A stretch of 64,000 nt of DNA from Acidobacteriota bacterium (lineage in GTDB: Bacteria > Acidobacteriota > UBA6911): NCBI GenBank assembly GCA_035506515.1, contig DATJPG010000042.1:11235-75234 (forward strand), given 5' to 3'. Shown here one piece after another: positions 5,254 to 47,370 of this stretch. The translations under genes were made by a program, and so were the position numbers. Positions within the stretch are counted from its first letter, which is position 1, and each line of letters starts with the position of its first letter. Below the pieces are notes generated by a model. That model did not search any database, had not been told where the DNA came from, and saw nothing but the letters and a program-made list of their open reading frames with translations.

Positions 5254-5271
5254 CAGTGTGGAAAAGAGCCT

Positions 5272-5988: not shown

Positions 5989-6111
5989 GACCAAACCCGC
6001 CTTTCGCCTGCTGCACTTATAAGGGATAGCCCGTGGCGCTTGCACACCAATGCACTTGCGCCACAGGCAAAAAGCACTGCCAGCATCGAAAATGACATGC
6101 AGAAACGGTTG

Positions 6112-6600: not shown

Positions 6601-6668
6601 TTCTTATTCTCCTTTTTGTAAGACCGCGCCCGGCCTGATCTTTCTGTGGGACGGGCGCGGAAATCATT

Positions 6669-11981: not shown

Positions 11982-11987
11982 TCTTCC

Positions 11988-13424: not shown

Positions 13425-13622
13425 AGTTTTGGCTCCGTTTTGCCTCATCATGTCACATCGGCAATTGCCGATCAATAAGAGGAGGCTTTTAGAGAATAGA
13501 ACCGTGCCTAGTGCGTGTATAATAGACTGGCATCCCGCGGGCGCTCTGGAGTAATCTCAATAGCGCACCAGGGAAAATTTTTACGACCGCGGTTTCGTCA
13601 CCATACCGAGCGGAAAAAGATC

Positions 13623-14975: not shown

Positions 14976-14990
14976 TAAGGAGACTCAGAC

Positions 14991-15704: not shown

Positions 15705-15716
15705 GGAGATGCCGCT

Positions 15717-20710: not shown

Positions 20711-20847
20711 GATGAGCGATGGTCACCATAAGCCGAATTTATAAGAAGGAAGGTGATTTCTGCCGGCCCGGCTCTTATGATTTCTTTCAGGGTGATGACA
20801 CATGTCACGGAATAAGCCTATAATTGCAGCAAGATAGGAGGCCTCTT

Positions 20848-21816: not shown

Positions 21817-21827
21817 GCGGGGGGCGG

Positions 21828-23456: not shown

Positions 23457-23656
23457 TTTTCCGAATACAGGAGTCAGCGTTCAGATTGGAAGTCTTGTGA
23501 ACTCTATATGCGTCCTGTCTCCTGCCTGATTGGTTGAGAGATCTCTCGGCTCTGCCGGGGAGGCAGTAATAGTTTGACAGGTGCAGGAGTTATTAGCGGC
23601 GGATTTCCGACATGTTTGTCTCGAGCCCCCAATAGCCAGTCCGGCATCACCAAGAC

Positions 23657-23753
23657 GATCGGGGTCGGTATCGGAATCGGGGTCGCAATCGGATTCGGTA
23701 TCGCTGAGGCTTATCGCCTCCCGATTTCGACCCCGATTCCGATACCGACCGCG
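23657..23753. repeat. REP-like palindromic element, family 1 (GGGGTCGGWATCGG arms), copy A
   Basis: Inverted arms of about 33 bp: gatcggggtcggtatcggaatcggggtcg...cgaccccgattccgataccgacc. It lies downstream of the STK stop. Related copies are at 37811 and 47307. Confidence 0.7.
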
Positions 23754-23863
23754 AACATATTGCCAAAGCCTCCGGCTTTGCCGAGGATACTTACTTCGGG
23801 GATCTGCTTGACTATCCCCTTCCCCAAGTCTATAGTGGCGATTTTTTCTCATGGAGGTTATCG

Positions 23864-25072
23864 ATGTCTGGGCCCTTAGCAGGCGTGCGAGTAGTAGAAA
23901 TCACAATGTTTCAACAGGGACCGGTTGCCGGAACCAAACTGGGTGACATGGGGGCAGACGTCATCAAGGTTGAACCCAAAGAAGGCGATCCGGCGCGCGG
24001 TTTTATGCGTCTCATCGGCGCGACCGTGGGACTCAAGGGAAATAACTACTATTTTGAAAGCAACAACCGCAACAAGCGCAGCATTGCGATGGACCTCAAG
24101 TCAGCCGGCGGGAAGGAGATCTTCCTGAAACTGATTGATACCGCCGATATCTTTCTCACCAACATGAGCATCGATGCGCCCATCAAAATCGGAATCGGGC
24201 CTGACGATCTGATGAAGCGAAATCCGCGGCTCGTCTACGGGCACTCGTCCGGATGGGGAAGAAAGGGGCCTGGTGCCGGCGATCTTTCGTTTGATTACAC
24301 GGGCATTGCCCGCTCGGGTTTGATGATGTGTGCGGGCGAAAAAGGCAGCCCCCCGGCCCAAATGCTTCCCGGAATGGGCGACCAGATCGGTGGCCTTATG
24401 CTCGCTTGGGCTGTAACTGCAGCGCTGTATGCCCGCGAGAAGACGGGCCAGGGCCAACTGGTGGACACGTCGCTCATGGGCAGCATCATCGCCCTCACCG
24501 GCCTCATTCTCGATGCCCCCGCGATGTTGAACCAGGAATACCCAAGAGAACTCAGAGCAGAAGCCGGCAACCCCATGTACAACCACTACAGGTGCCGCGA
24601 CGACAAATGGATCGCCGTGGCTCACCTCCAGCCGGACCGCTATTGGCCAGCCTTCAGCAAGGCCATGGAACTCGGAGACTTGGAACATGATCCCAGGTTC
24701 AACAGCATGGAAGCCCGCGGAAAGAACAAGACGGAACTCATCCGTATGCTGGACGAAAAATTCGCATCCAAAACGAGAGACGAATGGCTGGATCAGCTGA
24801 ACAAAGCAGGCTGCATCTGCACACCCGTTCAGTCTCTCGCCGAAGTGACTCGGGATCCCCAGGCTCTTGCCAATAACTATATGATCGATGCGGATCACCC
24901 GGAATGGGGACGCGTTCGCCAGGTCGGCTTTCCCTGGGATTTCAACGGAACGCCGGCCGAATGGCGCAGACCGGCGCCCAAGCTGGGCGAACACACAGAA
25001 GAGATTTTACGGGAAATTGGTTACGCCAGCGAAGCCATTGCTCAACTGAAGGCGTCCGGAGCTATTCTCTAA
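23864..25072 (+). CDS. CoA-transferase family III (CaiB/BaiF/FldA-like), paralog 1
   Basis: VRVVEITMFQQGPVAGTKLGDMGADVIKVEPKEGDPAR is the family-III N-terminal signature. It has about 65% identity to the ORF at 34400. Confidence 0.85.
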   Translation: MSGPLAGVRVVEITMFQQGPVAGTKLGDMGADVIKVEPKEGDPARGFMRLIGATVGLKGNNYYFESNNRNKRSIAMDLKSAGGKEIFLKLIDTADIFLTNMSIDAPIKIGIGPDDLMKRNPRLVYGHSSGWGRKGPGAGDLSFDYTGIARSGLMMCAGEKGSPPAQMLPGMGDQIGGLMLAWAVTAALYAREKTGQGQLVDTSLMGSIIALTGLILDAPAMLNQEYPRELRAEAGNPMYNHYRCRDDKWIAVAHLQPDRYWPAFSKAMELGDLEHDPRFNSMEARGKNKTELIRMLDEKFASKTRDEWLDQLNKAGCICTPVQSLAEVTRDPQALANNYMIDADHPEWGRVRQVGFPWDFNGTPAEWRRPAPKLGEHTEEILREIGYASEAIAQLKASGAIL

Positions 25073-26351
25073 TCACAACCGGAATGATGGTTCCTCCGGA
25101 CGGCAGAATCGTCACATCGGCCTTGGGCGTGCTCTTATAAGCCATCTGAATGGCCTCGTCGAGAGTCGCAGCATACTCAAAATTCATAAGCTGCACCTGC
25201 TCTCTCGTCAACCCCTCCGTCATGTGAATGACTTTGTACTGCTCGGACACTTCCTTGAAGGGAACTCCGAGCATAAAGAAGGATATGCCGAAGGGTTTGA
25301 TGCTGTCCGGAATATTTCCTTCAAGCAGTCTGCGGTGATATTCATTCGCGCTTTTCGCAGCGGCCATCTGCTCGATCAGCGACATTAGCGGTCCGGCCTG
25401 CTTTTCGGCGGCGGCCCAGATGATCGTTCCTCCCGTTTTGACAGCAAGCCTTGCGTTCAACAAAGATTTGGTCGCCTGGACGCCGATTTCCAGCGGGGCG
25501 GCGGATGTGATAACGATGTCCGCCTGTTTGGGCAGCGCCACCTTATATATAGAGGATGCGAATTCTGCCGCCTGCCGGTGCTCTTCGACGGGATCCCCGG
25601 CGAATGCCCGAATGACTCTATCTGTCTCGTTCAGCAGGAAATCAACCTTAAATGCCAAGCCTGCCAATCGCGCAACCTCGACTGTTTCGTCATACCAGGC
25701 ATTTCCCGCAAGGGCGCTGAGCTGGCAGGTCCTGTTCCGGAGCCAGCTGTAGTGATGGTCACCGATGCTTCGGTAGGACGACACTCCGGGCATGATAATT
25801 TTGCATCCGCCGCTGTATCCCGCATAAGGGTGCGGCATGCACGTGCCGATGCCGATGACCAGGTCCGCCTCGGCGACGTATTTATTGATTTCGACAGCCG
25901 TTCCCCGGCTGGTCTTGCCGACGAAAACGTTGTCGGGCGATTGAGATTCGTGGATGTAGACGCGACCCGCGAGGCGCCGCAGTGCTTCCGGCCCTATCTT
26001 CTTGGCAATCTGCTCCTGGGAGGGCATCGGGTGTGATCCCCGGGCACAGATCGCGGTGACGCGGGCATCGGGTACTCCGGCTTTGTTGAGACGGTTCAGG
26101 ATCGGGGGGATTGCGAACTGCGCCGGAGTGGCCCGCTGCATGTCGTCAAACAGCACGGCGACCTTCATCCCCGGGCGGGCCAGCCGCTCCAGGGTTGGAG
26201 TTCCGATGGGATTATCGAGCGCCCTCTCCACTTCTTTTGCCGCGTCTTCGACCAGAGGCGCCTTCGCACAATCCTGCGAGCTGAGCACATTCCATCCAGA
26301 TGGCAGGGAAAAATCGATCCTGCCGCCGCTGTAATTCAGGTAATAGTCCAT
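25062..26351 (-). CDS. LarA-like (nickel-pincer cofactor-dependent) 2-hydroxyacid racemase family protein, paralog 1
   Basis: 429 aa with DUF2088/LarA-type N-terminal domain features, and is paralogous to the ORF at 32832-34118. Confidence 0.7.
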   Translation of the reverse strand: MDYYLNYSGGRIDFSLPSGWNVLSSQDCAKAPLVEDAAKEVERALDNPIGTPTLERLARPGMKVAVLFDDMQRATPAQFAIPPILNRLNKAGVPDARVTAICARGSHPMPSQEQIAKKIGPEALRRLAGRVYIHESQSPDNVFVGKTSRGTAVEINKYVAEADLVIGIGTCMPHPYAGYSGGCKIIMPGVSSYRSIGDHHYSWLRNRTCQLSALAGNAWYDETVEVARLAGLAFKVDFLLNETDRVIRAFAGDPVEEHRQAAEFASSIYKVALPKQADIVITSAAPLEIGVQATKSLLNARLAVKTGGTIIWAAAEKQAGPLMSLIEQMAAAKSANEYHRRLLEGNIPDSIKPFGISFFMLGVPFKEVSEQYKVIHMTEGLTREQVQLMNFEYAATLDEAIQMAYKSTPKADVTILPSGGTIIPVVIRE

Positions 26352-26796
26352 AAAACCCCGCCTTCCTTCATTCCGCTCAATTATATCCGGCGCGTGGCTT
26401 CCTTGCCAGCAGGATGCTTCTGTCCCCGAATATTTAAAAATCTATTGGTAGGATGGTAGAATCAGAAATATACTTGTCATATATATGCGGATTCGTTTCC
26501 TGAACTAAGGTAAGAAGCAGGCAAAATATTTGTGCCGGGAGTGTTCTAGCGGCTAAAACCATTTGCGAGTGATCCAATCTCCATGTTGGATGCAAAGCAG
26601 GTTCGTGCTGTTTATTTGGAGCAAAATCATAAATATCCAGGGCATAATCCCGCGACACAAAATTGTTTAAGGAAGTTAGTATTATTTCCGCAATTGTGCC
26701 CGCCCACCCAATTCATGCAGTATGAGCGTCCGACATGCAAACAGGTGCATGCGGAGGGTTGCGGTGCATCCATAGTACTGAGGCAAGGAGGGCTTT

Positions 26797-28302
26797 GTGC
26801 AAAACATACTGGTCACTAAAAGCAATTCCTGGATGATCACGCAAATCATCAACAATAAACACGAATGCGAAAAAGAGATGGCTGAAGCAATACTGCAAGC
26901 CTTCGACAACAGCAAAGACAAAGATGTCCTCGGCGTTCTGAGGGGAATCGTTGCCAATTCGATCGATGACATAAAAGATATTATCGCCGCAAAGGGCGAG
27001 GCAGCGTTCACCGCCGCCTACGGCAAGGATGCAAGCAATTACGGCTTTGTTTCAGGCAAAGGTTTGGCCAATTCCGAGAAGTTTCTGAGTTTTGTCGGCA
27101 ATACGTCTAATGTTTTCGAAAGCATGAATACCGATGAATGCGGTTGTATGATCCGGTTCTATGGAGAGGTGATAGAAGCCGGGAATAAAATAGGGGGCGC
27201 CGACGAGTCCAAGGCGATCAAAGCGAAGCTCAAAGCGCTCGAGGATCACAAAGCGAGCTACCAGCTATCCTCTGAGGCGAATAAACCCGAATGGAAAAAG
27301 TCATCACAGGAAACCGGTAAGGAAGTCCCCAAAAGCGATGCGGCACTGAGAAATCGCGTTTCGGCATCCCCGAAGCCGCTTAAATGGGAAAAGGCACCAA
27401 CGGAACATCCCTCCCAGGCGGATCAGGCGGCGATTGAGAAATTTGAAGCACGCCAGAAAGAGGTTCAGGCTTATCGTCTGAAACGATCGAAAGTCGAGAG
27501 GCAATTGGCCGCTGCCGGAGGCGGCATCGGCGTATGGGTGCAAGAGGATGAAGATCTGCTTGCCCGGATGAACAAGGTGTTTGGTCTCATTCACGGCGCC
27601 ACGATCTCAGGCACGACCACCGATACTATCTTTTTCCTCAACAGGATGACTCTCGTTGATAAATATATGGGCGTCCGATTGCCCGACGAGTTGGGACAGC
27701 CTACCCCTGATTGGCTCGAATCTTATTATGGAGGGTGGGATTGGAGCACCTACAAAAAAACACATATAAAAAAGGTGGTCGCTCCGCAGGGTCTCGACCC
27801 TTTATATTACTTGATACCAATCGGCACCATTGTCGGCAAAGGACATCACTCCGTCCTGGAAGTCGCCATCCCCCTCACGCAGAACAAGAAGATGAACTAC
27901 ATCATAGGCAAATATACCCGGCTGCTTCTGGATCGCGAGGGGCGGGAAAACAGCGACGCGGCGGATATCGTGAGCGTCCTGAAGAGGTATGAGAATGACG
28001 ACAGAAACAAGCGTGTGCTGATTTATTATACCGCTCAAAAAGAGATTGAGGGATATGTGCTCTTTGACAAGGCAGAGGCGATCTGGGATGACATTGCTTT
28101 GGCAAACCAGAACCTCATGAATAAATTTAAGAGTTTCGCCACTCATCCCACAAAAGCACAAGTTGCATCGCTTCATCCGGAGCTGAATAGACTGCTTCTC
28201 CAAAGTCCTGCGCCACAGAAGGTCACGACCGGGGCGGAGCAAGTGTTTGCGTCCAGGAGAGCAATGTTCGAACGCCCGGTTCCCAGGCCTCAGAGGCAGT
28301 AA
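26797..28302 (+). CDS. Hypothetical protein in a low-GC island (orphan)
   Basis: 501-aa ORF with a GTG start 5 nt after AGGAGG. The gene and its 450-bp upstream region are visibly AT-richer than the surrounding sequence. No recognisable motifs. Confidence 0.5.
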   Translation: MQNILVTKSNSWMITQIINNKHECEKEMAEAILQAFDNSKDKDVLGVLRGIVANSIDDIKDIIAAKGEAAFTAAYGKDASNYGFVSGKGLANSEKFLSFVGNTSNVFESMNTDECGCMIRFYGEVIEAGNKIGGADESKAIKAKLKALEDHKASYQLSSEANKPEWKKSSQETGKEVPKSDAALRNRVSASPKPLKWEKAPTEHPSQADQAAIEKFEARQKEVQAYRLKRSKVERQLAAAGGGIGVWVQEDEDLLARMNKVFGLIHGATISGTTTDTIFFLNRMTLVDKYMGVRLPDELGQPTPDWLESYYGGWDWSTYKKTHIKKVVAPQGLDPLYYLIPIGTIVGKGHHSVLEVAIPLTQNKKMNYIIGKYTRLLLDREGRENSDAADIVSVLKRYENDDRNKRVLIYYTAQKEIEGYVLFDKAEAIWDDIALANQNLMNKFKSFATHPTKAQVASLHPELNRLLLQSPAPQKVTTGAEQVFASRRAMFERPVPRPQRQ

Positions 28303-28476
28303 AGCCAGACGATTGCGCCCGGACAAGTTACTGTAAGGGGCCTTTTCTGCTGAATTGTAGATATGCGATCATATCGGGCAGCGCAGGGAATCATTTTTGC
28401 CCAATCCCTTTAGATGCAACCTATCCGCAGTAATGCCGCGGACAAACAGATCTCTCTGCCACTTTGACATTTTTGC

Positions 28477-28505
28477 TTGACAGTCCCACGCCGGCTCATT
28501 TAAGA
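28477..28505 (+). promoter_or_regulatory. Candidate sigma70-type promoter (TTGACA-N17-TTAAGA) upstream of the oxidoreductase/dehydratase operon
   Basis: A perfect -35 hexamer, a 17-bp spacer and a weak -10, located about 40 bp upstream of the 28544 start. Confidence 0.25.
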
Positions 28506-28543
28506 GTGCACGGCTGTCATCGAATTGATTGGGAGATGAGGGG

Positions 28544-29485
28544 ATGTCCAGGACGATTGGAATTATAGGCGCCGGACCCGTTGGAGGGATTTTGGCGGCA
28601 CACTTATCCTCCGCTGGAAACACCGTTATCCTGGTGGATGCCTGGAAGGAACACATCGAAAAGATCCGTGCCGACGGCCTGCACATTACGGGCCAGGCCG
28701 GGATTTCATCAAAGCTGACGCACCTTTTGACCTCGGTTGAAGCTCTGGGCGCGTTCGCCCCTGAATTTGTTTTCATCTGTACTAAGGCCTGTGATCTTGA
28801 TAATGTCCTAGAGGGAATGGGCGAATCGCTTCGGCGTTCGAAAGCTGTATTTATCTCATTCCAGAACGGCATAGATACCGAGCAGGCCGTGGCAGAACGG
28901 ATCGGTCGGCATCGTGTCCTGCGCGGCGTGGTCAGCTATGCTGGCGTTCTTGTCGGTCCCGGAGAGATTCGCCGGAGTTTCTTCACTCCGCCCAATTACC
29001 TGGGCTGGCTGGATGAACGCGGCGCGGAGCCCTGCAAGGAAGCAGCCGCTGTGCTGTCTGCCTCCGGACTCGCAACGGAAGCGACGAAGGATATCGGCAG
29101 ATACGTCTGGAGAAAGGCGATCCTGAACAGCTGCACCATGTCGATCGCCGCCATCACCGGCATGACCATTCAGGAGATGATCGAGTTCTCCCCGACGGCG
29201 CAGCTCGTTGAACTGCTGCTGCAGGAGTCGGTCGCAGTGGCCGCTGCCTTTGGCTATGACTATGGTCCGGGGTTTGTGGAGTCGGTGCGGGATTTTAACA
29301 ACCATGCCGGGCCGCATAAACCATCGATGCGTGTGGACATCGAGAACGGACGCAGGACGGAAAATCCGTTTCTTATCCGTCGCATTGCCGAATGCGCCGA
29401 GCAAAAGGGAGTGCCGGCACCGCTGCACAGAACGGTGGCAAATCTCATAGATGCGCTCGAAAAGAAAGCCCTCGAGCGCCGCTGA
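28544..29485 (+). CDS. Ketopantoate reductase (ApbA/PanE) family 2-dehydropantoate/2-oxoacid reductase
   Basis: N-terminal Rossmann IGIIGAGPVGG; family length of about 310 aa. The start is taken at the Met after a GAGG RBS; the ORF track starts at 28529. Confidence 0.75.
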   Translation: MSRTIGIIGAGPVGGILAAHLSSAGNTVILVDAWKEHIEKIRADGLHITGQAGISSKLTHLLTSVEALGAFAPEFVFICTKACDLDNVLEGMGESLRRSKAVFISFQNGIDTEQAVAERIGRHRVLRGVVSYAGVLVGPGEIRRSFFTPPNYLGWLDERGAEPCKEAAAVLSASGLATEATKDIGRYVWRKAILNSCTMSIAAITGMTIQEMIEFSPTAQLVELLLQESVAVAAAFGYDYGPGFVESVRDFNNHAGPHKPSMRVDIENGRRTENPFLIRRIAECAEQKGVPAPLHRTVANLIDALEKKALERR

Positions 29486-29568
29486 TTTCCGGGCGGACTG
29501 AAACCCGCCCCCACCAGTGAATTCGTAACAGGGCTGAACAAACTAACTTTGAATACAGGAGCCAGGAA

Positions 29569-30825
29569 TTGAGTACCGAAAAAGCCAAAGCGACGTTCAA
29601 GAAAATCAATGCAACAGACAAAATGAAGGTCATCATGGAGCAGCATTTCCGCGAGCTCGATGAGGCCGCCAAAACCAAAAGCCACAAGATCGCCTGGTGC
29701 ACCAGCGTCGGTCCTGCGGAATTGCTGCGCGCGGCCGGATTCCTGGTCTTCTTTCCGGAAAATCATGGCGCCATGCTCGGATCCACCCGAATGGCAACCG
29801 ATCTGATCCCGCTTGCCAACGCCATCGGCTATTCGCCCGACATCTGTTCCTATCTGACCGCCGACATAGGTTCTTATCTCAAAGGCAACAGCCCGATCAG
29901 CAAGGCGTACCCCGGCGTGAGCGGTCCCCCGAGACCCGACCTGCTGGTTTACAACACCAATCAGTGCCGCGACGTCCACGACTGGTTCAACTTTTACGGG
30001 CGCGAATTCAACGTTCCTGTAATCGGCGTTCAGACGCACCGCGGCGTCGGCGATATCACGAAGGCGCATATCGATTCCATATCGGCGCAGATCAAAGCGC
30101 TTATTCCCACGCTGGAAGAGATTTCCGGCAAGAAACTGGATTACGACGAGTTCAAACGTGTCGTAGGCCTGTCACGCCAGTGCACGGATTTGTGGAAAGA
30201 GGTCCTGGAGATCGCTTCGAACAAACCATCCCCGCTGACGTTCTTTGACGGTACGATCCAGATGGGACCGGCCGTTGTGCTGCGCGGCGAACAGCGGGCA
30301 GTGGATTATTACAAAGATTTGCTTGTGGAGCTGAAACAGCGTGTTAAGGATGGCGTTGCCGCGATTGACGGCGAAAAGTTCCGCCTCTATTGGGAAGGAA
30401 TGCCGGTTTGGGGCAAACTGCGCGAGCTGTCTACCCAGTTCGCAGAACTGAGCACCTGCGTTCTTGCTTCGACCTACTGTAGCAGCTGGGTATTCCCTGC
30501 ACTGGATCCGGACGATCCATTTGACAGCATGGCACGCGCCTACATCGAGCTGTTCATCGTCCGCGACGAAAACTACAAGGAGAAGTATTTCGAGAACCAG
30601 ATCAACAAGTACAAGATCGACGGCATGATTTTCCACGATGCCAAAACCTGCCCGAACAATTCCAATAACCGCTACGGCATGCCAGAACGGCTGGCGAAGA
30701 AATACGAGATGCCTACGCTCGTGATCCACGGCGACCTGAACGATCTGCGCTGCTATTCGGAAGAACAGGCGCGGACGAACATCGAGGCGTTTATTGAGCA
30801 GCTGGCGGAGAAGAAGGGCAAGTGA
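29569..30825 (+). CDS. 2-hydroxyacyl-CoA dehydratase family protein (HgdB/FldC-like; single subunit, possibly double-cubane-cluster type)
   Basis: 418 aa, Cys-containing (8 Cys). It belongs to the HgdAB/BcrBC-like family, and the next gene, overlapping by 4 nt, is the cognate ATPase activator. No partner subunit is present. Confidence 0.65.
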   Translation: MSTEKAKATFKKINATDKMKVIMEQHFRELDEAAKTKSHKIAWCTSVGPAELLRAAGFLVFFPENHGAMLGSTRMATDLIPLANAIGYSPDICSYLTADIGSYLKGNSPISKAYPGVSGPPRPDLLVYNTNQCRDVHDWFNFYGREFNVPVIGVQTHRGVGDITKAHIDSISAQIKALIPTLEEISGKKLDYDEFKRVVGLSRQCTDLWKEVLEIASNKPSPLTFFDGTIQMGPAVVLRGEQRAVDYYKDLLVELKQRVKDGVAAIDGEKFRLYWEGMPVWGKLRELSTQFAELSTCVLASTYCSSWVFPALDPDDPFDSMARAYIELFIVRDENYKEKYFENQINKYKIDGMIFHDAKTCPNNSNNRYGMPERLAKKYEMPTLVIHGDLNDLRCYSEEQARTNIEAFIEQLAEKKGK

Positions 30826-31616
30826 GTCAGAATACTTATTTCGGCGGAGTGGATATCGGGGCCTCGGCCACCAAAGTCGCCATCATCGACGACGCGCGAG
30901 AACTTGTGGCTTCCGATGTCCGCAAAACCGGCGTCAGCTTTGAAACCTGTGCGCAGGAGGCAATGGATTCGGCCCTGGCCTCCTGCGGCCTGAAAATTTC
31001 GGACCTCTCACGCGTATTTTCGACCGGGTACGGCCGTCAAAATGTGGTCTTCTCTCACGGAACCCGCACCGAGATCGCCTGCCACGCGCGGGCTGCGCAC
31101 CATTTCTTCCCTTGCCGTATCACCATCGTCGATGTGGGCGGGCAGGACAACAAAATCATCCACATCGATGCGGCCGGCCGGCGCGAAAGCTTCAAGATGA
31201 ACCGGAAATGCGCCGCGGGTACGGGCGCTTTCCTCGAGGAAGTGGCCCAGCGCATGGACGTTCCGATGGACCAGCTCGATTCCCTGGCGCGGCAGGCGTC
31301 GAGCGTCGTGCACATGGGGAGCTATTGCACGGTGTTCACAAAAACTGAAATACTGGCTCACCTGAGAGCCGGGAAAAAGGTTCCGGAAATCGTAGCGGGG
31401 CTTATCGAATCGGTCGTCAAACGCATCATCGAAATGAACCCGCTCGCGGGCGAGGTAGTAATCACGGGCGGAGTGGTGGATCATAATCCGATCCTGGCGG
31501 AGATGCTGGCCAAGCACCTGGGACATCCGGTTCATACGCTGCCGCACGCGCAACTTGCCGGCGCACTGGGTGCCGCCCTTTTAGCCGCAGAAGAAAAAAA
31601 AGAGGCCACAAACTAA
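30822..31616 (+). CDS. Acyl-CoA dehydratase activase (HgdC/BadF/BcrAD ATPase family)
   Basis: The N-terminus YFGGVDIGASATKVAIID is the ASKHA ATPase phosphate-1 motif. It is about 260 aa with the conserved Cys region typical of HgdC-like activators. Confidence 0.8.
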   Translation: MSQNTYFGGVDIGASATKVAIIDDARELVASDVRKTGVSFETCAQEAMDSALASCGLKISDLSRVFSTGYGRQNVVFSHGTRTEIACHARAAHHFFPCRITIVDVGGQDNKIIHIDAAGRRESFKMNRKCAAGTGAFLEEVAQRMDVPMDQLDSLARQASSVVHMGSYCTVFTKTEILAHLRAGKKVPEIVAGLIESVVKRIIEMNPLAGEVVITGGVVDHNPILAEMLAKHLGHPVHTLPHAQLAGALGAALLAAEEKKEATN

Positions 31617-31710
31617 ATCGGGGACGTCCCACTCGTTCATCTATTTTGCATAGCAATCCTCTGATTGGTGTGCCTTCCAAAATAGGTGAACGAGTGGGAC
31701 GTCCCCGATT
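31614..31710. terminator. 33-bp perfect inverted repeat between convergent genes (bidirectional terminator-like hairpin)
   Basis: aaatcggggacgtcccactcgttcatctatttt...aaaataggtgaacgagtgggacgtccccgattt, with T-runs on the flanks. It lies between the 3' ends of the activase (+) and ldh2 (-). Confidence 0.6.
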
Positions 31711-31727
31711 TCACCCGATTTCAAAAA

Positions 31728-32813
31728 CTACAGATACGGTGCCGGCTCAAGATTGAACTTCTTAGCGTAATCGTCGAGCATCTTTATTTCGCCCTCGTCA
31801 ATCGTGACTCCCTCAGCCATCGACTTCGCTTTCCGCTCCACTTCCTTTTCGCCGTGGACGTAGATCCTGTCGTGGCCCTCCGCTTTCGCGCTGTTGCGCA
31901 CTCCCTCGAGAATTTCCTCGACATGCGCCTCGATCTCGGCGGGTTTGCCGAAAAGATCTGTGCGCATGACGCCGAAAAACTGCGCTACCCTCGCGCCGCT
32001 GTTTTTGATAAACGTGTCGCGGCTCCATGCACCCATCGACATTCCGGCACACAGAAGGTCTACAAACAAACCAAGTCCGTATCCCTTATGCCCGCCGAGC
32101 TCTTCGCCGGCGCCGCCAAGGAACAGATGCCCGCCTGTCTTCTTTTCGCGATAAATCTTCTGGAAAGCATGGACATCGGTGGTGTCCATGCCGTTCTCGT
32201 CGACCACCCATCCAACCGGCATGGATTTGTTGAGGCGCTCATACACTTCAATCTTCCCATGTGCGACCGTTGTCGTTGCCATATCCAGAATGAAAGGTAC
32301 CTTCCCGGATGAGGGAATGGCAAAGCACATAGGATTGGTTCCAAGAATGCGATCCTTTCCAAAGGTAACAATCGAGCAGATCCGGGTGTTGCAGAAGGAC
32401 ATGCCAATGAAGCCTTCTGCCGTGGCCATTTCTCCCCAAAGCGCTGCCATCCCGAAATGATTGGAGTTGCGGACTGCGGCGAAACCGGCTCCGGCTTTCC
32501 TTGCCTTATCGAGGGCACGGTTCATGGCGAACTGAGCGATATACGCTCCAACGCCATTATGTCCATCGACCACCACCGATAAAGGAGTTTCATGGACGAT
32601 CTCAGGCTCCGCAGCAGGGAAATTGAATCCATTCTTGATGTTGGATTCATAGAAATCCAGCCGGCCTACTCCGTGGGAATTGACGCCGCGCGCATCGGCT
32701 TCCACGAGAGCCCACGCAGTAACGTCCGCCTGTGCCTTTGGGTATCCCAATTTTTCCAGGATCTTGATGGTGTATGCAGTTAGCGCTTCGTACTTGACTT
32801 TAGCTTCGTTCAT
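31728..32813 (-). CDS. Ldh2-family (malate/L-lactate/sulfolactate dehydrogenase type 2) oxidoreductase
   Basis: 361 aa with Ldh_2 family length and conserved blocks (GVNSHGVGRL, HFGMAA). Confidence 0.75.
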   Translation of the reverse strand: MNEAKVKYEALTAYTIKILEKLGYPKAQADVTAWALVEADARGVNSHGVGRLDFYESNIKNGFNFPAAEPEIVHETPLSVVVDGHNGVGAYIAQFAMNRALDKARKAGAGFAAVRNSNHFGMAALWGEMATAEGFIGMSFCNTRICSIVTFGKDRILGTNPMCFAIPSSGKVPFILDMATTTVAHGKIEVYERLNKSMPVGWVVDENGMDTTDVHAFQKIYREKKTGGHLFLGGAGEELGGHKGYGLGLFVDLLCAGMSMGAWSRDTFIKNSGARVAQFFGVMRTDLFGKPAEIEAHVEEILEGVRNSAKAEGHDRIYVHGEKEVERKAKSMAEGVTIDEGEIKMLDDYAKKFNLEPAPYL

Positions 32814-32831
32814 AGTTCTCCTTGATTAGTT

Positions 32832-34118
32832 TCAGATTTTCTTCAGCTTGGGAAGTGCGCTCGATCCCTGGGGCATCAAATAGATCTTCTGGTTTCGCCC
32901 GCCCTCCTTGAGTGCAATCTCGAGGGCTTCGTCGACTGTTCTGGCGGTCCGGAATTTGGTTTTCGCCAGAAGCGCAGGGTCTCCGTTCCCCACGATGATG
33001 ATGTTCCATTGTTCTGCAGCCGTGCACATGTAATAGCTCACATACTTTGGAACTGTGAAAAGTTTGCGAACCTCACGCTCACGCTCCGCGTTCGTCTCGC
33101 ATTCCAGAAAAATCGTGTTCGCATCCGGCGGACCAATCCCCTCGGTGCAGTCGCTCAGGATGATGATCCAGCCGCCGGGCTTTGTCGCTGCCTGCGTGTG
33201 GTAGACGCCTTTGCCGGTCTGGCACACGTCGATGTCCTTCGGGTAGCCGCCTTGAGAGGAAATGGTGATGTCGGCAAGCTCTTTGATGGGCACTTCGTAG
33301 AGTTCGTCCACGATGTTTCGGCCCACGTCGTGCGCGGCGAGGCAGTCCCCGCACACGGCGCGGGCGATCTTCCCGTCATGCCCCATGATCACGTTGAACA
33401 TAAAAGTCGGCTTCACAATGGCGGCGACTTCAAGCATGTCCAGGTGGATGGGATTGTCCTTGATGTTTCCACTCGCAACCTCAGGACGTTGTCTGCCCAG
33501 CTCGTCCATGGTCATCAGGTGGTTCTTCTGTATGGATTCGATCGAGGAAATGCCGGGCAGAATCGACTTTTTGCCTCCGCCGTAGCCCACCCAGGGGTGG
33601 TACGTGCAGCAACCGGTCAGCACGAGACAATCAGCCTCCGCGGCAATCCTGTTAATAATGACGGGTGTGCCGCGGCTGGTTTTGCCCACCTGAACCAGGT
33701 TGTTCTTGTCCAGGCAGTCGTGGTCGATGATCTGAAATCTCTTCAAGAGCTCGGGCCCGAGCAATTTCGCGTGCTCCTCCGGCGTGTGCTTGCGGTGGTA
33801 TCCCAGGGCGCTGAGGAAACAGATGTCCTTGTCCTTGACGCCAGCTTCGTTCAGCTCTTTCACGATATGCGGCAAATACACGCTCATCCGCTGCCAGGCG
33901 CGCGTCACATCGGATACGACGATACAGACCGTATTGCCCGGTTTTACGAGTTCTCGCAGGCGCGGCGTGCCGATCGGATGGGCAAGGGCGTCCAGGACTA
34001 CGTCGTCTTCGGTCATGGGAGAGGATGGGATTTCTTTAACGATCATCCCCAAAAGATTTTCTTCCGGGACGGATACATCCACATAACCAGTTCCGAGTTT
34101 CATCTTTACGGTTTTCAT
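32832..34118 (-). CDS. LarA-like 2-hydroxyacid racemase family protein, paralog 2
   Basis: 428 aa, paralogous to the ORF at 25062-26351. GGAG RBS. Confidence 0.7.
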   Translation of the reverse strand: MKTVKMKLGTGYVDVSVPEENLLGMIVKEIPSSPMTEDDVVLDALAHPIGTPRLRELVKPGNTVCIVVSDVTRAWQRMSVYLPHIVKELNEAGVKDKDICFLSALGYHRKHTPEEHAKLLGPELLKRFQIIDHDCLDKNNLVQVGKTSRGTPVIINRIAAEADCLVLTGCCTYHPWVGYGGGKKSILPGISSIESIQKNHLMTMDELGRQRPEVASGNIKDNPIHLDMLEVAAIVKPTFMFNVIMGHDGKIARAVCGDCLAAHDVGRNIVDELYEVPIKELADITISSQGGYPKDIDVCQTGKGVYHTQAATKPGGWIIILSDCTEGIGPPDANTIFLECETNAEREREVRKLFTVPKYVSYYMCTAAEQWNIIIVGNGDPALLAKTKFRTARTVDEALEIALKEGGRNQKIYLMPQGSSALPKLKKI

Positions 34119-34399
34119 AGACGCGCTCCGCTAACTACTGCTATGCCACCGGCTCGAAAAGCACCGAAGCCCGCACGAATCCGGCTGTCCTGCGGCTCGA
34201 TCTTCAAAATTCGTGGAGGTTTTGGCGGCCGTGGCTCAATGAAGGCAGATCCAAGAAACCTGTCACGAATCAAATATTATACTGGATTGAAGCCTTCTAA
34301 ATAGAGGAAAAAGGCGACAGTGATGACTGTCCGGTTTTACCATGGTATATTGACCCGTTCACAATGAGCTGCGATCAGCAAATCGTCGGGAGGAATGCC

Positions 34400-35611
34400 A
34401 TGTCAAAGGGGCCTTTATCAGGGATAAGAGTGATAGAAATCTCAACATTTCAGCAGGGGCCGGTTGCCGGGATGAGACTGGGGGATCTCGGGGCCGATGT
34501 CATTAAAATCGAGCCGAAAGAAGGGGATCCCGCAAGGCGCCACATGAGAACCATTGAGGCGGAATTCAACGTCAAGGGAGACAATTACTATTTTGAGCAC
34601 GCCAACCGCAACAAGCGTGGCATTGTCCTGGACATGAAAAAAGCAAAGGGCATGGAAGTTTTTCTGAGGCTCATCGATTCTGCGGATGTCTTCCTTAATA
34701 ATATGAGCATCGGAGCGCCCCTGCGGCTCGGCATCGGGCCGGATGAGCTGCTCGCCCGCAATCCCCGACTCATTTACGCACAGGCTTCCGGCTGGGGCAG
34801 AAAAGGTCCCATAGCCAACAACCTTTCTTTCGATTACACCGGCATTGCGCGATCCGGCCTCATGATGGCGGCAGGAGAAGACAAGACTCCGCCCTCCATG
34901 ATTCTCCCGGGCCTGGGAGATGAATTGGGCGGGCTCATGTGCGCCTGGGGAGTAAGCCTGGCACTCTTTGCACGCGAAAAGACGGGAAAAGGACAAGTCG
35001 TCGATACATCCCTGATGGGCAGCGTGGTCGCTATGCTGGGACACCTCATATCGGGCACTGCGATGCTGAAGCAGGAGTTCCCAAGGTTCGTCCGGACTAA
35101 CATGGGCAATGTCATGTACAACCATTACTGCTGCAAGGACGGCAAATGGCTTGCCATTGCGCATCTCGATCCAGACCGGTGGTGGGCGAAGGTCTGCGGC
35201 GCGCTCGGCCTTGAAAAACTGATCGACGATCCAAGGTATAGCACCTTCGCAGCTCGGTCCAGCAACCGCGCGGATCTGGTTAGGATTTTCGATGAAGTAT
35301 TCGCCAGCAAGACAAGAGATGAATGGATGCAGATTCTCCAAGAGCACGGCTGCATCTATACCCCGGTGCAAAACATTCCTGACGTCGTCGAAGACCCGCA
35401 GCTATTGGCCAATAACTATGTAATCGAGATTGACCATCCGACCTATGGCCATACCAAGACCATGGGATTTCCGTGGGACCTCAGCGAAACACCGGCATCC
35501 TGGAGAAGAAGATCTCCGAAACTCGGCGAACACACCGATGAAGTGATCCTGGAAATCGGGTACAGCAAGGAAGACCTGGCAAAATTAAAAGAAGAGGGTG
35601 CTATCCAATGA
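34400..35611 (+). CDS. CoA-transferase family III, paralog 2
   Basis: IRVIEISTFQQGPVAGMRLGDLGADVIKIEPKEGDPAR. The start is at the Met after a GGAGG RBS; the ORF track starts at 34364. Confidence 0.85.
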   Translation: MSKGPLSGIRVIEISTFQQGPVAGMRLGDLGADVIKIEPKEGDPARRHMRTIEAEFNVKGDNYYFEHANRNKRGIVLDMKKAKGMEVFLRLIDSADVFLNNMSIGAPLRLGIGPDELLARNPRLIYAQASGWGRKGPIANNLSFDYTGIARSGLMMAAGEDKTPPSMILPGLGDELGGLMCAWGVSLALFAREKTGKGQVVDTSLMGSVVAMLGHLISGTAMLKQEFPRFVRTNMGNVMYNHYCCKDGKWLAIAHLDPDRWWAKVCGALGLEKLIDDPRYSTFAARSSNRADLVRIFDEVFASKTRDEWMQILQEHGCIYTPVQNIPDVVEDPQLLANNYVIEIDHPTYGHTKTMGFPWDLSETPASWRRRSPKLGEHTDEVILEIGYSKEDLAKLKEEGAIQ

Positions 35612-35711
35612 ATTTCGGTGACAGTCACCATAACTCCCGAATTGCAGATAGCGCGTCAGGGCGGCCTCCGTCTTGAGTAATTCGGGAGTTATGGTGGCTG
35701 TCACCGAAATT
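35611..35711. repeat. 33-bp near-perfect inverted repeat (stem-loop) between CoA-transferase 2 and the acyl-CoA synthetase
   Basis: aatttcggtgacagtcaccataactcccgaatt...aattcgggagttatggtggctgtcaccgaaatt, with one mismatch. It shares the 12-mer gtcaccgaaatt with the window-start hairpin. Confidence 0.7.
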
Positions 35712-35737
35712 ATAAAAATTATAAAAGGAGAAATGAA

Positions 35738-37795
35738 ATGCTTGATTCCCTGTTTCGACCCCGTGGCGTTGCCGTGATCGGCGCTTCCAACAACACATTT
35801 TCCATCGGAAACCGTGTTGTGAAAAATCTGATCGCCCATAATTTTAAGGGAGGAATCTATCCCGTTCATCCCAAAGAATCCGAAATACTGGGTCTGAAGG
35901 CATATCCAAGCATTCTCGATGTCCCGGGACCGGTGGATATTGCGAGCATTGTGGTTAAAAACACGATGGTGCCGCAGGTTGTCGAGGACTGCGGGAAGAT
36001 GGGCGTCAAGTTCGTCATCATCCATACCGCGGGATTCAGCGAAATGGGGCCCGATGGAGCAAAACTCCAGGATGCGTTGATGGACGCGGCGCGCCGGTAT
36101 GGCGTGCGCGTCTATGGGCCGAACAGCCAGGGAGTCATGAACTCGGATCCAGACGTTTCGGTGTACGCCAATTTCACGTTCACGCCGATGCGCCCCGGCA
36201 ATGCATCCATTCTTGCGCAGAGCGGCGGCGTGGCGGAATTGCTGAACCTGAATCTGCGCAAAATGGGCTCCGGTTTCCGCATGTACGCTTCCCACGGCAA
36301 TGCCACCGACGTGAACACGAACGAACTGCTGGATTATCTCGGCAGCGATCCGGAAACGCGCACCATCATCATGCACATCGAAAGCATGAAAGACACGCCC
36401 GGATTCATCGAACGCTGCCGGCGCATCGCCCGCGACAAATCCATCCTGGCGATCCGCACGGGGCGCACCGCGGCCGCGGCCAAAGCGGTCAGTTCGCACA
36501 CGGGCTCGCTGATGCAGCAGGATTCGCTCACGGATACTATTTTTGAGCATGCAGGTGTCATGCGCTTCAGCACGACCGAAGAGATGATCTCCGCGGCATA
36601 CGCATTTGCGACCCAACCGGTCCCGGCCGGGGCGAATGTGGGTATCATCGCAAACGCCGGCGGACCGGGCATCATGTGCGTGGACGAGTGCGTGAGCCAC
36701 GGACTCTCACTCGCCAAATTCACCGAGGAAACCAAAGCGAAGCTGCGCGCCGGATTGATCCCCGAATCTTACGTTGAGAATCCCGTCGACGTCGCGGCAA
36801 CAGCCAACGCGGATCATTTTGGTCTCGCCATCTCCTGTCTGAATGAGGATCCCGGCGTCGATGCCATCCTCATTCCTATGGTGACTCCATTTTTTGTGGA
36901 TTGCGAAGCGATTGCACGCAAGATTGCGGAGACGGCGAAAACGGTCACCAAGCCGATCATCGCCGTGGTGATGACCAATGAAAATTGGACAAGCACAGTA
37001 GAAACCATCAAAAACGCGGGAATCCCGGTTTTCGACTTCCCGGAAACGGGAGCAAGAGTGCTGGCCGCAATGGCCCGCTACAGCGAAATCCGGAAACGCT
37101 TGACCGAGGTGCCGGCCGTTGCCGCCGGGAACAAGACGAAAGCCCAGGGAATACTCGCCGGCGCCGGCACGGGATTTATTTCTCAGGCTGCCGCGTTTCA
37201 GGTGCTGGAGGCATACGAAATTCCGGTTGCCCTCACAGCCGCCATCGGATCGGCGGATTTGCCGCGCAAGATGAATTACCCCGTGGCGCTGAAAGTGGAC
37301 AGCGCCGACGTCGTCCACAAAAGCGATGCCGGTGGCGTTGTGCTGGATATTGCGAAAAGAGACGCGCTCCAGAAGGCGATCGATGAGATGGCGAAACGCT
37401 TCCCAGGTGCGAAGTTTATCGTGCAGGAACAATGTGCGCCGGGTACCGAAGTGATCGTCGGTTTCAAGCGCGAAAAAGGGGTGGGCCCGGTTGTCATGTT
37501 CGGCATGGGCGGCGTTCAGGTCGAGGCACTCAAAGATGTTTCCTTTCGGATGGCTCCTATGTCGGAAGCCGGTGCCGCGCGCATGGTGCGGGAGATCCGT
37601 TCATTTCCACTCCTTGCCGGCTCACGCAGCAATCCCGCCGTGGATCTGGCCGCCATCGAGAAACTGATGATCGCCGTTGCACAAATGGCTGTTGACCTTC
37701 CGGAAATCGCCGAGATGGATTTGAATCCGGCTATCGTGTATCCGCAGGGCCAGGGGATTAAGGTCGTCGACGTCCGCATAAAAAACAGTAAGTAG
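35738..37795 (+). CDS. Acyl-CoA synthetase (NDP/ADP-forming), fused alpha-beta type (acetate--CoA ligase [ADP-forming]-like)
   Basis: 685 aa. It has an N-terminal CoA-binding domain (VAVIGASNNTFSIG), a succinyl-CoA-synthetase-like flavodoxin domain and a C-terminal ATP-grasp. AAGGAG RBS. Confidence 0.85.
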   Translation: MLDSLFRPRGVAVIGASNNTFSIGNRVVKNLIAHNFKGGIYPVHPKESEILGLKAYPSILDVPGPVDIASIVVKNTMVPQVVEDCGKMGVKFVIIHTAGFSEMGPDGAKLQDALMDAARRYGVRVYGPNSQGVMNSDPDVSVYANFTFTPMRPGNASILAQSGGVAELLNLNLRKMGSGFRMYASHGNATDVNTNELLDYLGSDPETRTIIMHIESMKDTPGFIERCRRIARDKSILAIRTGRTAAAAKAVSSHTGSLMQQDSLTDTIFEHAGVMRFSTTEEMISAAYAFATQPVPAGANVGIIANAGGPGIMCVDECVSHGLSLAKFTEETKAKLRAGLIPESYVENPVDVAATANADHFGLAISCLNEDPGVDAILIPMVTPFFVDCEAIARKIAETAKTVTKPIIAVVMTNENWTSTVETIKNAGIPVFDFPETGARVLAAMARYSEIRKRLTEVPAVAAGNKTKAQGILAGAGTGFISQAAAFQVLEAYEIPVALTAAIGSADLPRKMNYPVALKVDSADVVHKSDAGGVVLDIAKRDALQKAIDEMAKRFPGAKFIVQEQCAPGTEVIVGFKREKGVGPVVMFGMGGVQVEALKDVSFRMAPMSEAGAARMVREIRSFPLLAGSRSNPAVDLAAIEKLMIAVAQMAVDLPEIAEMDLNPAIVYPQGQGIKVVDVRIKNSK

Positions 37796-37810: not shown

Positions 37811-37876
37811 TCGGGGTCGGAATCGGATTTTAAAAAGCAGTTCGACCCCGATTCCGACCCCGACCCCGACCCCGAT
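37811..37876. repeat. REP-like palindromic element, family 1, copy B (with CCCCGA hexamer reiteration)
   Basis: cggggtcggaatcggatttt...tcgaccccgattccgaccccgaccccgaccccgatt, immediately downstream of the acyl-CoA synthetase stop. Confidence 0.65.
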
Positions 37877-47306: not shown

Positions 47307-47370
47307 GATCGGGGTCGGAATCGGATTCGGTATCGCTTAAGCTTTTCGCTTCCCGATTTCGACTCCGATA
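47307..47370. repeat. REP-like palindromic element, family 1, copy C
   Basis: gatcggggtcggaatcggattcggtatcgc...cccgatttcgactccgata, downstream of the sahR-like stop. Confidence 0.6.

Follow-up and report, generated by a model that had tools for sequence, protein, structure and literature searches.

In the canonical two-subunit enzymes of the 2-hydroxyacyl-CoA dehydratase (HGD-D) family, substrate binding is the task of one subunit and storage of the energised electron that of the other. The FldBC dehydratase, for example, is a heterodimer complexed with FldA. The sole characterised homodimeric member of the family is the double-cubane cluster protein (DCCP), which works with the homodimeric ATPase DCCP-R (Carboxydothermus hydrogenoformans; YjiM/YjiL in E. 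coli; PMC7317905). A 2026 study of the benzene-degrading sulfate reducer BzS1 described a "singular" FldB-like gene and speculated that it encodes a phenyllactyl-CoA dehydratase (PMC13416013). Here we analysed a stretch of 64,000 nucleotides (the window) from an Acidobacteriota bacterium of the UBA6911 lineage (contig DATJPG010000042.1, positions 11,235 to 75,234), in which positions 23864-37795 hold a compact gene cluster built around a single HGD-D protein and its activase. A module that combines a solo dehydratase with an ADP-forming acyl-CoA synthetase was not found in the literature searched, the BzS1 study being the only near match.

Judging from the gene content of this cluster and of its relatives, we lean towards a reading in which the cluster produces 2-enoyl-CoA from 2-hydroxy acids and their 2-oxo counterparts by means of a homomeric dehydratase, probably with hydrophobic substrates. 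The nine enzyme genes of the cluster are as follows.

23864-25072, plus strand: family-III CoA-transferase 1 (402 amino acids; PF02515, 385.6 bits, full length)
25062-26351, minus strand: LarA1 racemase of the nickel-pincer type (429 amino acids; Lar_N 172.7 bits, LarA_C 45.3 bits)
28529-29485, plus strand: PanE/ApbA-family NAD(P)H 2-oxoacid reductase (318 amino acids; ApbA and ApbA_C; TIGR00745, 179 bits, cut-off 141); translation more likely begins at the ATG at 28544
29569-30825, plus strand: HGD-D protein, a solo alpha-type, putative homomeric dehydratase (418 amino acids; PF06050, 223 bits)
30822-31616, plus strand: ATP-dependent activase of the HgdC/HadI type (264 amino acids; BcrAD_BadFG 169.8 bits; TIGR00241, 205.6 bits, cut-off 125)
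31728-32813, minus strand: Ldh_2-family 2-hydroxyacid dehydrogenase (361 amino acids; PF02615, 361 bits)
32832-34118, minus strand: LarA2 racemase, LarAH10-like (428 amino acids; Lar_N 238.5 bits)
34364-35611, plus strand: family-III CoA-transferase 2 (415 amino acids; PF02515, 387.5 bits)
35738-37795, plus strand: ADP-forming (NDP-forming) acyl-CoA synthetase with fused alpha and beta parts (685 amino acids; five Pfam domains)

All nine enzymes had been listed by a first-pass annotation of the window, and Pfam and NCBIfam searches of the window's open reading frames (ORFs) strongly supported each of them where it had been placed. That annotation had overlooked a tenth ORF, however (26797-28302, plus strand, 501 amino acids, without a family match), and the two CoA-transferases, which it had put at about 65% identity, are 61% identical; the CoA_transf_3 model was covered from 1 to 366 of 366, with an E value of about 1e-115. 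The activase gene overlaps the HGD-D gene by 4 bp, and the two are translationally coupled. The cluster is flanked on the left by a type VI secretion system (T6SS), a methyltransferase, a CsgG-like protein and a Ser/Thr kinase and on the right by a sigma factor and ABC efflux genes, which supports the borders given above. The cluster is no chance grouping: related Acidobacteriota genomes preserve its whole gene order in synteny.

Profile scores and predicted fold both place the HGD-D protein with the catalytic, substrate-binding alpha type, and with neither the beta subunits, the double-cubane proteins nor the BcrB/C clade. Among NCBIfam models, HadB (alpha) ranked first with 221 bits, followed by BcrB (160), BzdO (90), the double-cubane model (57) and HadC (beta; 22); every curated cut-off was higher than the score (HadB NF052455, 750; BcrB, 487; BzdO, 449; double-cubane NF040772, 350). 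A sequence search of the PDB likewise returned HadB first (173 bits with the single sequence, 214 bits with a profile), then MbdO and BzdO, with much weaker matches to DCCP, HadC, MbdN and BzdN. An AF2 model of the protein (pLDDT 80, pTM 0.85) gave the same ranking in Foldseek: HadB (3o3m_A) was the best match, with a template-modelling (TM) score of 0.83 and 28% identity, ahead of MbdO (TM 0.80, 27% identity), BzdO (TM 0.75-0.78), DCCP (TM 0.70-0.73, 16-17% identity) and the beta/N-type chains (TM 0.63-0.67), and the alpha-type chains outranked every beta/N-type chain in the match list.

The active-site residues agree with this placement. C93, C133 and C361 align with the [4Fe-4S] ligands Cys95, Cys128 and Cys380 of BzdO and with the corresponding HadB cysteines, which have the same coordination, and E64 aligns with the active-site glutamate (BzdO Glu65, HadB residue 55). 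All four residues are invariant in 65 orthologues and kept in almost all of 100 representatives, and by alignment the three cysteines form a putative site for a [4Fe-4S] cluster with one open iron. In the activase, the two cluster-bridging cysteines, C130 and C169, are invariant in 52 orthologues; their spacing of 39 residues is the same as between C127 and C166 in HgdC. The nearest match to HadB, the retained ligand cysteines and glutamate, and the coupled activase are all consistent with the radical-dehydratase logic, acting on 2-hydroxyacid CoA esters, that had been proposed at first pass.

The same annotation had offered a homodimeric double-cubane type as one explanation for the single subunit, and we ruled this identity out by motif, model score (57 against 350 bits) and fold rank. 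The 7-Cys motif CX19CX18-19CX29CX166-170CX32-34CX32C is absent, the cysteine spacings of the HGD-D protein being 48, 39, 71, 91, 6, 56 and 33. DCCP shares the two-gene architecture that we propose for the window pair; unlike the window protein, it has the motif, and it lacks a CoA channel and reduces small molecules.

To look for a second subunit, we searched the window by tblastn and, together with 80 related loci (most of them taken with flanks of up to 10 kb), with the HGD-D family profile, using hmmsearch --max on all ORFs of at least 120 amino acids. The genome scan covered one genome per species and gave at least 548 matching stretches overall. No second HGD-D gene was found in the 64-kb window, in line with the first-pass statement that only one dehydratase-family subunit is present, and at 79 of the 80 related loci the flanks searched (up to 10 kb) likewise contained none. 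The single exception, L004, carries extra family members next to the solo gene. There, a four-gene set of the benzoyl-CoA reductase/dehydratase family (5329-10031, minus strand) adjoins the solo dehydratase gene in the place of PanE and consists of two activase-type ATPases, an alpha-type subunit and a BzdN/double-cubane-type subunit. The same search picked up this last, beta/N-type protein (BzdN/double-cubane-like, 203 bits, with 5 of the 6 BzdN ligand cysteines) at E = 0.009, so the absence of beta genes elsewhere is meaningful.

The entire orthologue group formed one cluster in a library of representatives at 50% identity. The genomic context of the next relatives is listed here by their identity to the HGD-D protein.

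P0137, 52% identity: solo; PanE::HGD-D fusion, then activase
P0139, 47% identity: solo; PanE, HGD-D, activase, AMP-forming ligase
P0144, 42% identity: solo; HGD-D, activase
P0147, 40% identity: solo; PanE, HGD-D, activase
P0148, 40% identity: solo; divergent ADP-forming-synthetase-like gene, HGD-D
P0163, 38% identity: paired; beta-type HGD-D gene directly upstream
P0153, 37% identity: paired; beta-type HGD-D gene directly upstream

Relatives with at least 40% identity are solo and those with at most 38% are alpha/beta pairs; "solo" thus marks a defined clade. The side-by-side alpha and beta genes of heterodimeric systems are not found in the window cluster, and with no second HGD-D gene within 10 kb at 79 of 80 loci, a partner encoded elsewhere, the other explanation given at first pass, is unlikely. 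A homomeric enzyme appears to be the better reading. Two other proteins of the representative library, P0146 (603 amino acids) and P0161 (768 amino acids), have PanE-like domains fused to an HGD-D-like domain in which all three cluster cysteines are replaced (Ser/Gly/Ser or Thr); this part may be a degenerate, non-redox partner or scaffold.

The nearest relatives of the cluster have 83-94% protein identity, are metagenome-assembled and are nearly all labelled Acidobacteriota, including members of the UBA6911 lineage. The complete gene order is syntenic in L002, L008 and L014, and L001, L003, L005 and L009 are syntenic as far as contig or gene content permits. A minimal acidobacterial form, found in L006, L007, L010, L012 and L013, comprises CoA-transferase 1, LarA1, an optional PanE, HGD-D, activase and synthetase. 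The block Ldh_2-LarA2-CoA-transferase 2 is inserted between activase and synthetase in some genomes only: Ldh_2 is present in 7 of the 14 acidobacterial loci, and orthologues of CoA-transferase 2 (83-91% identity) occur in L001, L002, L004, L008, L009 and L014. The paired genes had been thought to funnel both enantiomers; given that the second set is an inserted block in some relatives, they more likely broaden the substrate range than merely handle two enantiomers. One of the syntenic loci, L009 (CAWEBD010000102.1), is labelled "uncultured Bacteroidetes", although its cluster proteins are 91-94% identical to those of the window; its HGD-D gene is broken, with the N-terminal portion encoded by an ORF of its own (9137-10423). 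We attribute the label to a probable mistake in binning or naming, and the break to a probable assembly error.

Orthologues that are 62-69% identical were found in Desulfobacterota, Planctomycetota, Aminicenantes, Elusimicrobia, one Thermoplasmata archaeon and the cultured Desulfonema magnum. The solo HGD-D and activase genes form a core, joined at many loci by genes for an acid-CoA ligase and a PanE-like reductase, that is shared by numerous bacterial phyla and a single archaeal genome. An activase is encoded no more than 5 kb from the HGD-D orthologue in 74 of the 80 loci, an ADP-forming synthetase in 49 (often 4-30 bp downstream) and PanE in 29. LarA lies within this distance in 13 of the 14 Acidobacteriota loci but in none of the 66 elsewhere, and a family-III CoA-transferase in 13 of 14, against two weak matches among the 66; the racemases and CoA-transferases are Acidobacteriota-only add-ons. 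The first-pass proposal had been made to depend on conserved neighbours and on linkage of the CoA-transferase and LarA pairs in related genomes, and both were observed.

The reductase position is also filled in more than one way. At four loci, a GlcD-type flavin adenine dinucleotide/iron-sulfur (FAD/Fe-S) 2-hydroxyacid dehydrogenase lies immediately upstream of HGD-D, at the usual position of PanE, and several loci have an AMP-forming ligase and no ADP-forming synthetase. PanE, Ldh_2, LarA and the GlcD-type enzyme are four unrelated families of 2-hydroxy- or 2-oxo-acid enzymes that converge on the HGD-D protein. This convergence is our strongest argument that its substrate would be a 2-hydroxyacyl-CoA.

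In the pathway that we propose, the reductases would interconvert 2-oxo acids and (R)- or (S)-2-hydroxy acids, and the LarA enzymes would supply the (R)-enantiomer. A CoA-transferase, or the synthetase working in the ligase direction, would form the (R)-2-hydroxyacyl-CoA; the activase, using ATP, would inject one low-potential electron into the dehydratase, which would eliminate water via a ketyl radical to give the (E)-2-enoyl-CoA. The product would then leave the cluster, most likely for beta-oxidation, because neither an enoyl-CoA reductase nor an electron-transfer flavoprotein (ETF) is encoded in the cluster; aromatic products could go onward to benzoyl-CoA. The dehydratase itself is most likely a homo-oligomer without a beta subunit and would then have the same symmetry as the homodimeric activase, an arrangement known from DCCP and DCCP-R; with the second set of Ldh_2, LarA2 and CoA-transferase 2, the cluster would accept a broader range of substrates. 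For the HGD-D protein, the oligomeric state, cofactor and substrate given here are all inferred from comparison with its relatives.

The pathway logic is shared with the Had, Fld and Lcd systems, and canonical membership fails on the heterodimer and on the score cut-off. The HadBC/HadI/HadA/LdhA system of Clostridioides difficile (PDB 3o3m) resembles the window cluster in its alpha subunit, which is the best match, in the three-cysteine [4Fe-4S] site and glutamate, in its HgdC-type ATPase, and in having a family-III CoA-transferase and a D-type 2-oxoacid reductase within the same cluster. By contrast, the window cluster has no HadC-like beta subunit, its alpha-type protein is only 28% identical to HadB (221 against 750 bits), LarA racemases are added, and an ADP-forming synthetase stands in place of AcdB/EtfAB. 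With FldABC/FldI of Clostridium sporogenes, compared by description and not by sequence, it would share the route from aryl-pyruvate through aryl-lactate and its CoA ester to cinnamoyl-CoA; the window adds a LarAH10-like enzyme, and related loci have an aromatic context. Unlike in that system, the subunit is solo and the product probably goes to beta-oxidation and is not reduced. In the acrylate pathway (Clostridium propionicum, Megasphaera elsdenii), LarA, propionate CoA-transferase and LcdABC act jointly on a free 2-hydroxy acid, as would the enzymes here. The Lcd dehydratase, however, has two different subunits, LcdA and LcdB, its CoA-transferase belongs to family I, unlike those of the window, and the LarA specificity residues found here are not those of lactate racemases.

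The racemases offer clues to the substrate. LarA1 and LarA2 are merely 31% identical and are therefore old paralogues; both have Lar_N and LarA_C domains, two catalytic histidines, the cofactor lysine and the nickel-binding histidine. The best NCBIfam match of LarA1 was LarAH6 (286 bits, under the cut-off of 500). Aligned to 5huq, it has His/His/Lys/His equivalents of H108, H174, K184 and H200 of L. plantarum LarA; its specificity loop is wholly hydrophobic, without the H/Q-K pair of malate racemases, and matches no lactate, malate, 2-hydroxyglutarate or gluconate signature. LarA2 best matched LarAH10, the group of hydrophobic 2-hydroxyacid and phenyllactate racemases (455 bits, under 540), with conserved catalytic residues and Tyr-Val where the malate racemase Mar2 has His-Lys. 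A Phe or Tyr at this tyrosine position is a hallmark of hydrophobic racemases (PMC11770544).

The gene neighbourhoods outside Acidobacteriota have an aromatic element. In Desulfobacterales, the module lies in a same-strand array with 6-hydroxycyclohex-1-ene-1-carbonyl-CoA dehydrogenase (471 bits, above the cut-off of 339), IorA (765, above 651), IorB and a PaaK-like ligase; the array continues with PanE, activase, HGD-D, synthetase, acyl-CoA ligase and thiolase, and FadB-like and enoyl-CoA hydratase genes are close by. Beta-oxidation neighbours outside Acidobacteriota comprise thiolase (19 loci), enoyl-CoA hydratase (9) and FadB-like genes (7). A three-subunit molybdenum enzyme, whose best match was 4-hydroxybenzoyl-CoA reductase, below the cut-off, is encoded next to the module in other lineages, and this enzyme family was seen near the module in 7 of the 66 non-acidobacterial loci. 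In L088 (8188-14157; GCA_054682455.1), genes for a three-subunit molybdenum hydroxylase, XdhC and a cytidylyltransferase come after the PanE::HGD-D fusion and its activase; the hydroxylase best matched the alpha subunit of 4-hydroxybenzoyl-CoA reductase at 733 bits, below 995. The LarAH10-like LarA2, the Desulfobacterales array and the molybdenum enzyme thus point to aryl-lactates and other hydrophobic 2-hydroxy acids, and the preferred substrates are probably compounds such as phenyllactate, other aryl-lactates and 2-hydroxyisocaproate.

The putative catalytic aspartate of the CoA-transferases, read from the sequence alignment, lies in "GMGDQ" (D173, CoA-transferase 1) or "GLGDE", and the best PDB relative of CoA-transferase 1 was succinate-hydroxymethylglutarate CoA-transferase (172 bits). 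Ldh_2 best matched L-sulfolactate dehydrogenase (203 bits, under 500). The synthetase has CoA_binding_2, Succ_CoA_lig, Ligase_CoA_2 and ATP-grasp_5 domains, with H254 and H527 invariant in 41 orthologues, and best matched 4-hydroxybutyrate-CoA ligase (474 bits, under 1300). The first-pass annotation was right that an ADP-forming synthetase is present; the substrate-level phosphorylation assigned to it fared less well. Outside Acidobacteriota, the synthetase is the sole CoA-activating enzyme beside the dehydratase, and at several loci an AMP-forming ligase replaces it, so acid activation fits at least as well as ATP yield. This suggests that the synthetase primarily activates the acid, though it may also act in the reverse, ATP-yielding direction.

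Several observations weigh against conversion to 2-enoyl-CoA by a homomeric dehydratase of hydrophobic substrates. The fate of the enoyl-CoA is not encoded within the cluster, and the NCBIfam equivalog scores all lie far under their cut-offs. HadB (28% identity) and MbdO (27%) are nearly equidistant from the HGD-D protein, so homology alone cannot tell dehydratase from reductase. The searches reached at most 10 kb from an orthologue, and a beta gene could lie farther off. No Pfam-annotated ORF in the 64 kb corresponded to the nickel-pincer cofactor genes larB, larC or larE, and the nearest solved relatives of the CoA-transferases use dicarboxylates. Finally, the planctomycete locus L086 has only the HGD-D/activase pair, and L087 the pair plus synthetase, with unrelated genes around them, so a common small metabolite such as lactate, 2-hydroxybutyrate or 2-hydroxyglutarate would fit as well as aromatics.

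Of the other explanations, a Stickland-type reductive branch as in clostridia is a credible minority possibility. In such a branch, a 2-oxoacid would be converted to the (R)-2-hydroxyacid, its CoA ester, enoyl-CoA and finally saturated acyl-CoA, with the enoyl-CoA or acyl-CoA product recycled by a FldA/HadA-type transferase and ATP gained by the synthetase. Apart from the reductase step, the gene content matches the logic of had/fld operons, ADP-forming synthetases are classical ATP-yielding enzymes of peptide fermenters, and UBA6911 Acidobacteria are predicted to ferment. However, no acyl-CoA dehydrogenase or ETF was found in the cluster or in the syntenic acidobacterial loci. Moreover, with CoA-transferases nearly absent outside Acidobacteriota, acid activation there must fall to the synthetase or an AMP-forming ligase, and the neighbours in those lineages are beta-oxidation genes and not reductases. 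The clostridial 2-hydroxyacid route invoked at first pass therefore holds for its CoA-ester and dehydration logic and fails for its reductive part.

Two further cysteines distinguish the solo clade. Among 65 orthologues, C44 is invariant and C304 is 98% conserved, and both are present in the solo relatives P0136, P0137, P0139, P0140, P0144 and P0147; the PanE::HGD-D fusion of P0137 (NCBI assembly) keeps all five cysteines. Paired relatives have Val, Ile, Leu or Ser at position 44 and Thr or Pro at 304, with Ser and Pro in HadB. C44 follows the active-site tryptophan (BzdO Trp46), MbdO likewise having a cysteine at this position, and both C44 and C304 are located in loops that give second-cubane ligands in DCCP and BzdN. 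The spacing from C133 to C304 equals the published C4-to-C5 spacing of DCCP. By contrast, C297, which is not conserved across the clade, suits the BzdN spacing and the hhalign column instead of C304, and one of the six double-cubane ligand positions has no cysteine in the HGD-D protein. The mapping onto double-cubane ligands is therefore suggestive but ambiguous, and we treat the pair as an unexplained clade signature near the active site.

These cysteines bear on an improbable alternative, in which the HGD-D protein is an ATP-driven reductase of the benzoyl-CoA reductase or double-cubane kind that acts on an aromatic or other acyl-CoA supplied by the synthetase, with C44 and C304 in an enlarged cluster or in proton delivery. 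The near-equal identity to MbdO and HadB, the aromatic-pathway genes alongside the module in Desulfobacterales and other lineages, the restriction of the C44/C304 pair to the solo clade (C44 also in MbdO, and both in second-cubane ligand loops) and the precedent of DCCP, a homodimeric member with a homodimeric ATPase, all speak for it. Against it, the associated LarA, PanE, Ldh_2 and GlcD-type enzymes all act on 2-hydroxy or 2-oxo acids, and PanE is even fused to HGD-D; the 7-Cys motif is absent, a ligand position lacks its cysteine, the double-cubane model scores 57 against 350 bits, and the mapping of C304 is ambiguous. In addition, the catalytic His131 of BzdO is replaced by Val136, which is invariant across the solo clade. 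The class I benzoyl-CoA reductases (BzdNOPQ, MbdONQP, BcrABCD) do share with the window pair the superfamily, an ATP-dependent electron-activating ATPase and, in MbdO, the cysteine at the C44 position. Unlike the window, with its one ATPase and one HGD-D gene, they need an [8Fe-9S] N/C-type partner and two ATPase subunit genes, and the window protein falls short of their models (BcrB, 160 against 487 bits; BzdO, 90 against 449 bits).

It is quite improbable, in our view, that the enzyme is an ordinary alpha/beta heterodimer with its beta gene in another part of the genome. The characterised dehydratases and class I benzoyl-CoA reductases are all heteromeric (PMC7317905; PMC11971306), and our analysis spans 64 kb of the genome. 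However, canonical partner genes are adjacent, as in P0153, P0163 and L004; in 79 of 80 loci, spread over many phyla, the activase, ligase and reductase genes keep together and no beta gene joins them; and in the planctomycete locus L086, HGD-D and activase stand alone amid housekeeping genes. A reverse, anaerobic alpha-oxidation, in which enoyl-CoA is hydrated, the synthetase frees the acid with a gain of ATP, and the acid is oxidised to the 2-oxo acid and decarboxylated by a ferredoxin oxidoreductase, is very improbable: dehydration is chemically reversible, GlcD-type enzymes usually oxidise 2-hydroxy acids and IorAB lies within the same operon in Desulfobacterales, but we know of no physiological precedent, the beta-oxidation genes of the same operons offer a shorter route for enoyl-CoA, and the acidobacterial racemases and CoA-transferases suit the uptake of free 2-hydroxy acids.

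Returning to the homomeric dehydratase, a large, highly conserved clade (62-69% identity across phyla; at least 548 matching stretches) appears to manage with just the catalytic-type subunit. As a minimal model for coupling ATP-driven "archerase" electron injection to radical chemistry, the solo system would make the role of the beta subunit testable, which is of interest to specialists in radical and ATP-driven iron-sulfur enzymes. Anoxic soils and sediments are rich in its hosts (uncultured Acidobacteriota, sulfate reducers, planctomycetes and Aminicenantes), and the module could explain non-clostridial mineralisation of 2-hydroxy acids and aromatic amino-acid skeletons there; it is also a compact candidate part for the bio-based production of unsaturated acids. 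A bolder proposal, which we make tentatively and think rather unlikely to hold in full, is that the solo clade represents an unrecognised homodimeric class of ketyl-radical dehydratases, specifically aryl-lactyl-CoA dehydratases, in which one polypeptide serves as both alpha and beta subunit by means of C44 and C304, which would contribute either to a larger or additional Fe-S centre or to a thiol pair with redox or proton activity next to the [4Fe-4S] cluster. If so, anaerobic respirers (Desulfobacterota, Acidobacteriota, Planctomycetota and others) could channel aromatic amino acids and aryl-lactates via cinnamoyl-CoA-type intermediates and beta-oxidation into benzoyl-CoA.

The first-pass annotation had found an oxygen-sensitive module notable beside aerobic sdh and superoxide dismutase genes. 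Fe/Mn superoxide dismutase is found in anaerobes too, and the SdhA/B-type genes of the window are indistinguishable from those of fumarate reductase, FrdAB. The UBA6911 lineage, moreover, has been described as both respiratory and fermentative (bioRxiv 10.1101/2021.04.09.439258). The contrast is therefore weak, and there is nothing unusual in a facultative organism of this kind having an oxygen-sensitive module.

Three further features lie within the cluster.

26386-28475, plus strand: strain-specific insert with ORF501 (26797-28302), without counterpart in syntenic loci and outside the pathway
31615-31711, no strand: hairpin between the convergent activase and Ldh_2 genes (41-nt arms, 90% complementary)
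35611-35711, no strand: hairpin between the CoA-transferase 2 and synthetase genes (33-nt arms, 97% complementary)

The 2.09-kb insert has a lower GC content, about 51%, and its DNA has no counterpart in any syntenic locus. ORF501 had no Pfam or NCBIfam match; its family has 15 relatives among 5.8 billion proteins (24-54% identity), which occur in prophage-like, transposase-adjacent (IS200/IS605) and otherwise unrelated contexts. ORF501 is an accessory insert and not a pathway gene. We also considered it as a concealed second subunit and rejected this, as it has no HGD-D similarity and is a strain-specific insert from a rare orphan family in mobile contexts.

Both are perfect hairpins of about 100 nt that occupy the whole intergenic spacer and fold strongly, with minimum free energies of -71.2 kcal/mol (z = -15.7) at 31615-31711 and -73.2 kcal/mol (z = -13.9) at 35611-35711. 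The first is probably a bidirectional terminator or a repetitive extragenic palindromic (REP)-like element; one arm of the second recurs at positions 71-90 of the window, so this element is dispersed. Similarly strong folding spacers were found in most of the related acidobacterial loci (L001-L014), and the lineage seems rich in long intergenic palindromes. Because equal hairpins occur in relatives without the block and the arms are dispersed repeats, we rejected the idea that the two hairpins mark the Ldh_2-LarA2-CoA-transferase 2 block as a mobile cassette. An Rfam scan found no riboswitch or other RNA family at 20-42 kb, and a consensus scan gave promoter and terminator counts not above those of shuffled sequence. 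A REP-like palindrome of TCGGGGTCGGNATCGG units occurs at 23651-23762, 37811-37875 and 47309-47368 (13 matches, 0.31 expected); two of the three sites exactly bracket the cluster, with folding energies of -71 and -32 kcal/mol.

Directly upstream of the cluster, at 20824-23456, a CsgG-like lipoprotein and a Ser/Thr protein kinase are encoded, and both are syntenic in L003, L005 and L008. Farther to the left, positions 103-19196 hold a complete T6SS with TssG, TssF, a gp25-like protein, VasJ, ImpE, Hcp, VipA/VipB, DotU and IcmF. It includes two TssK/VasE paralogues (9125-10480 and 13515-14975, both on the plus strand), and two methyltransferase-like genes and an unassigned 495-amino-acid ORF (11988-13475, minus strand) lie within the same region.

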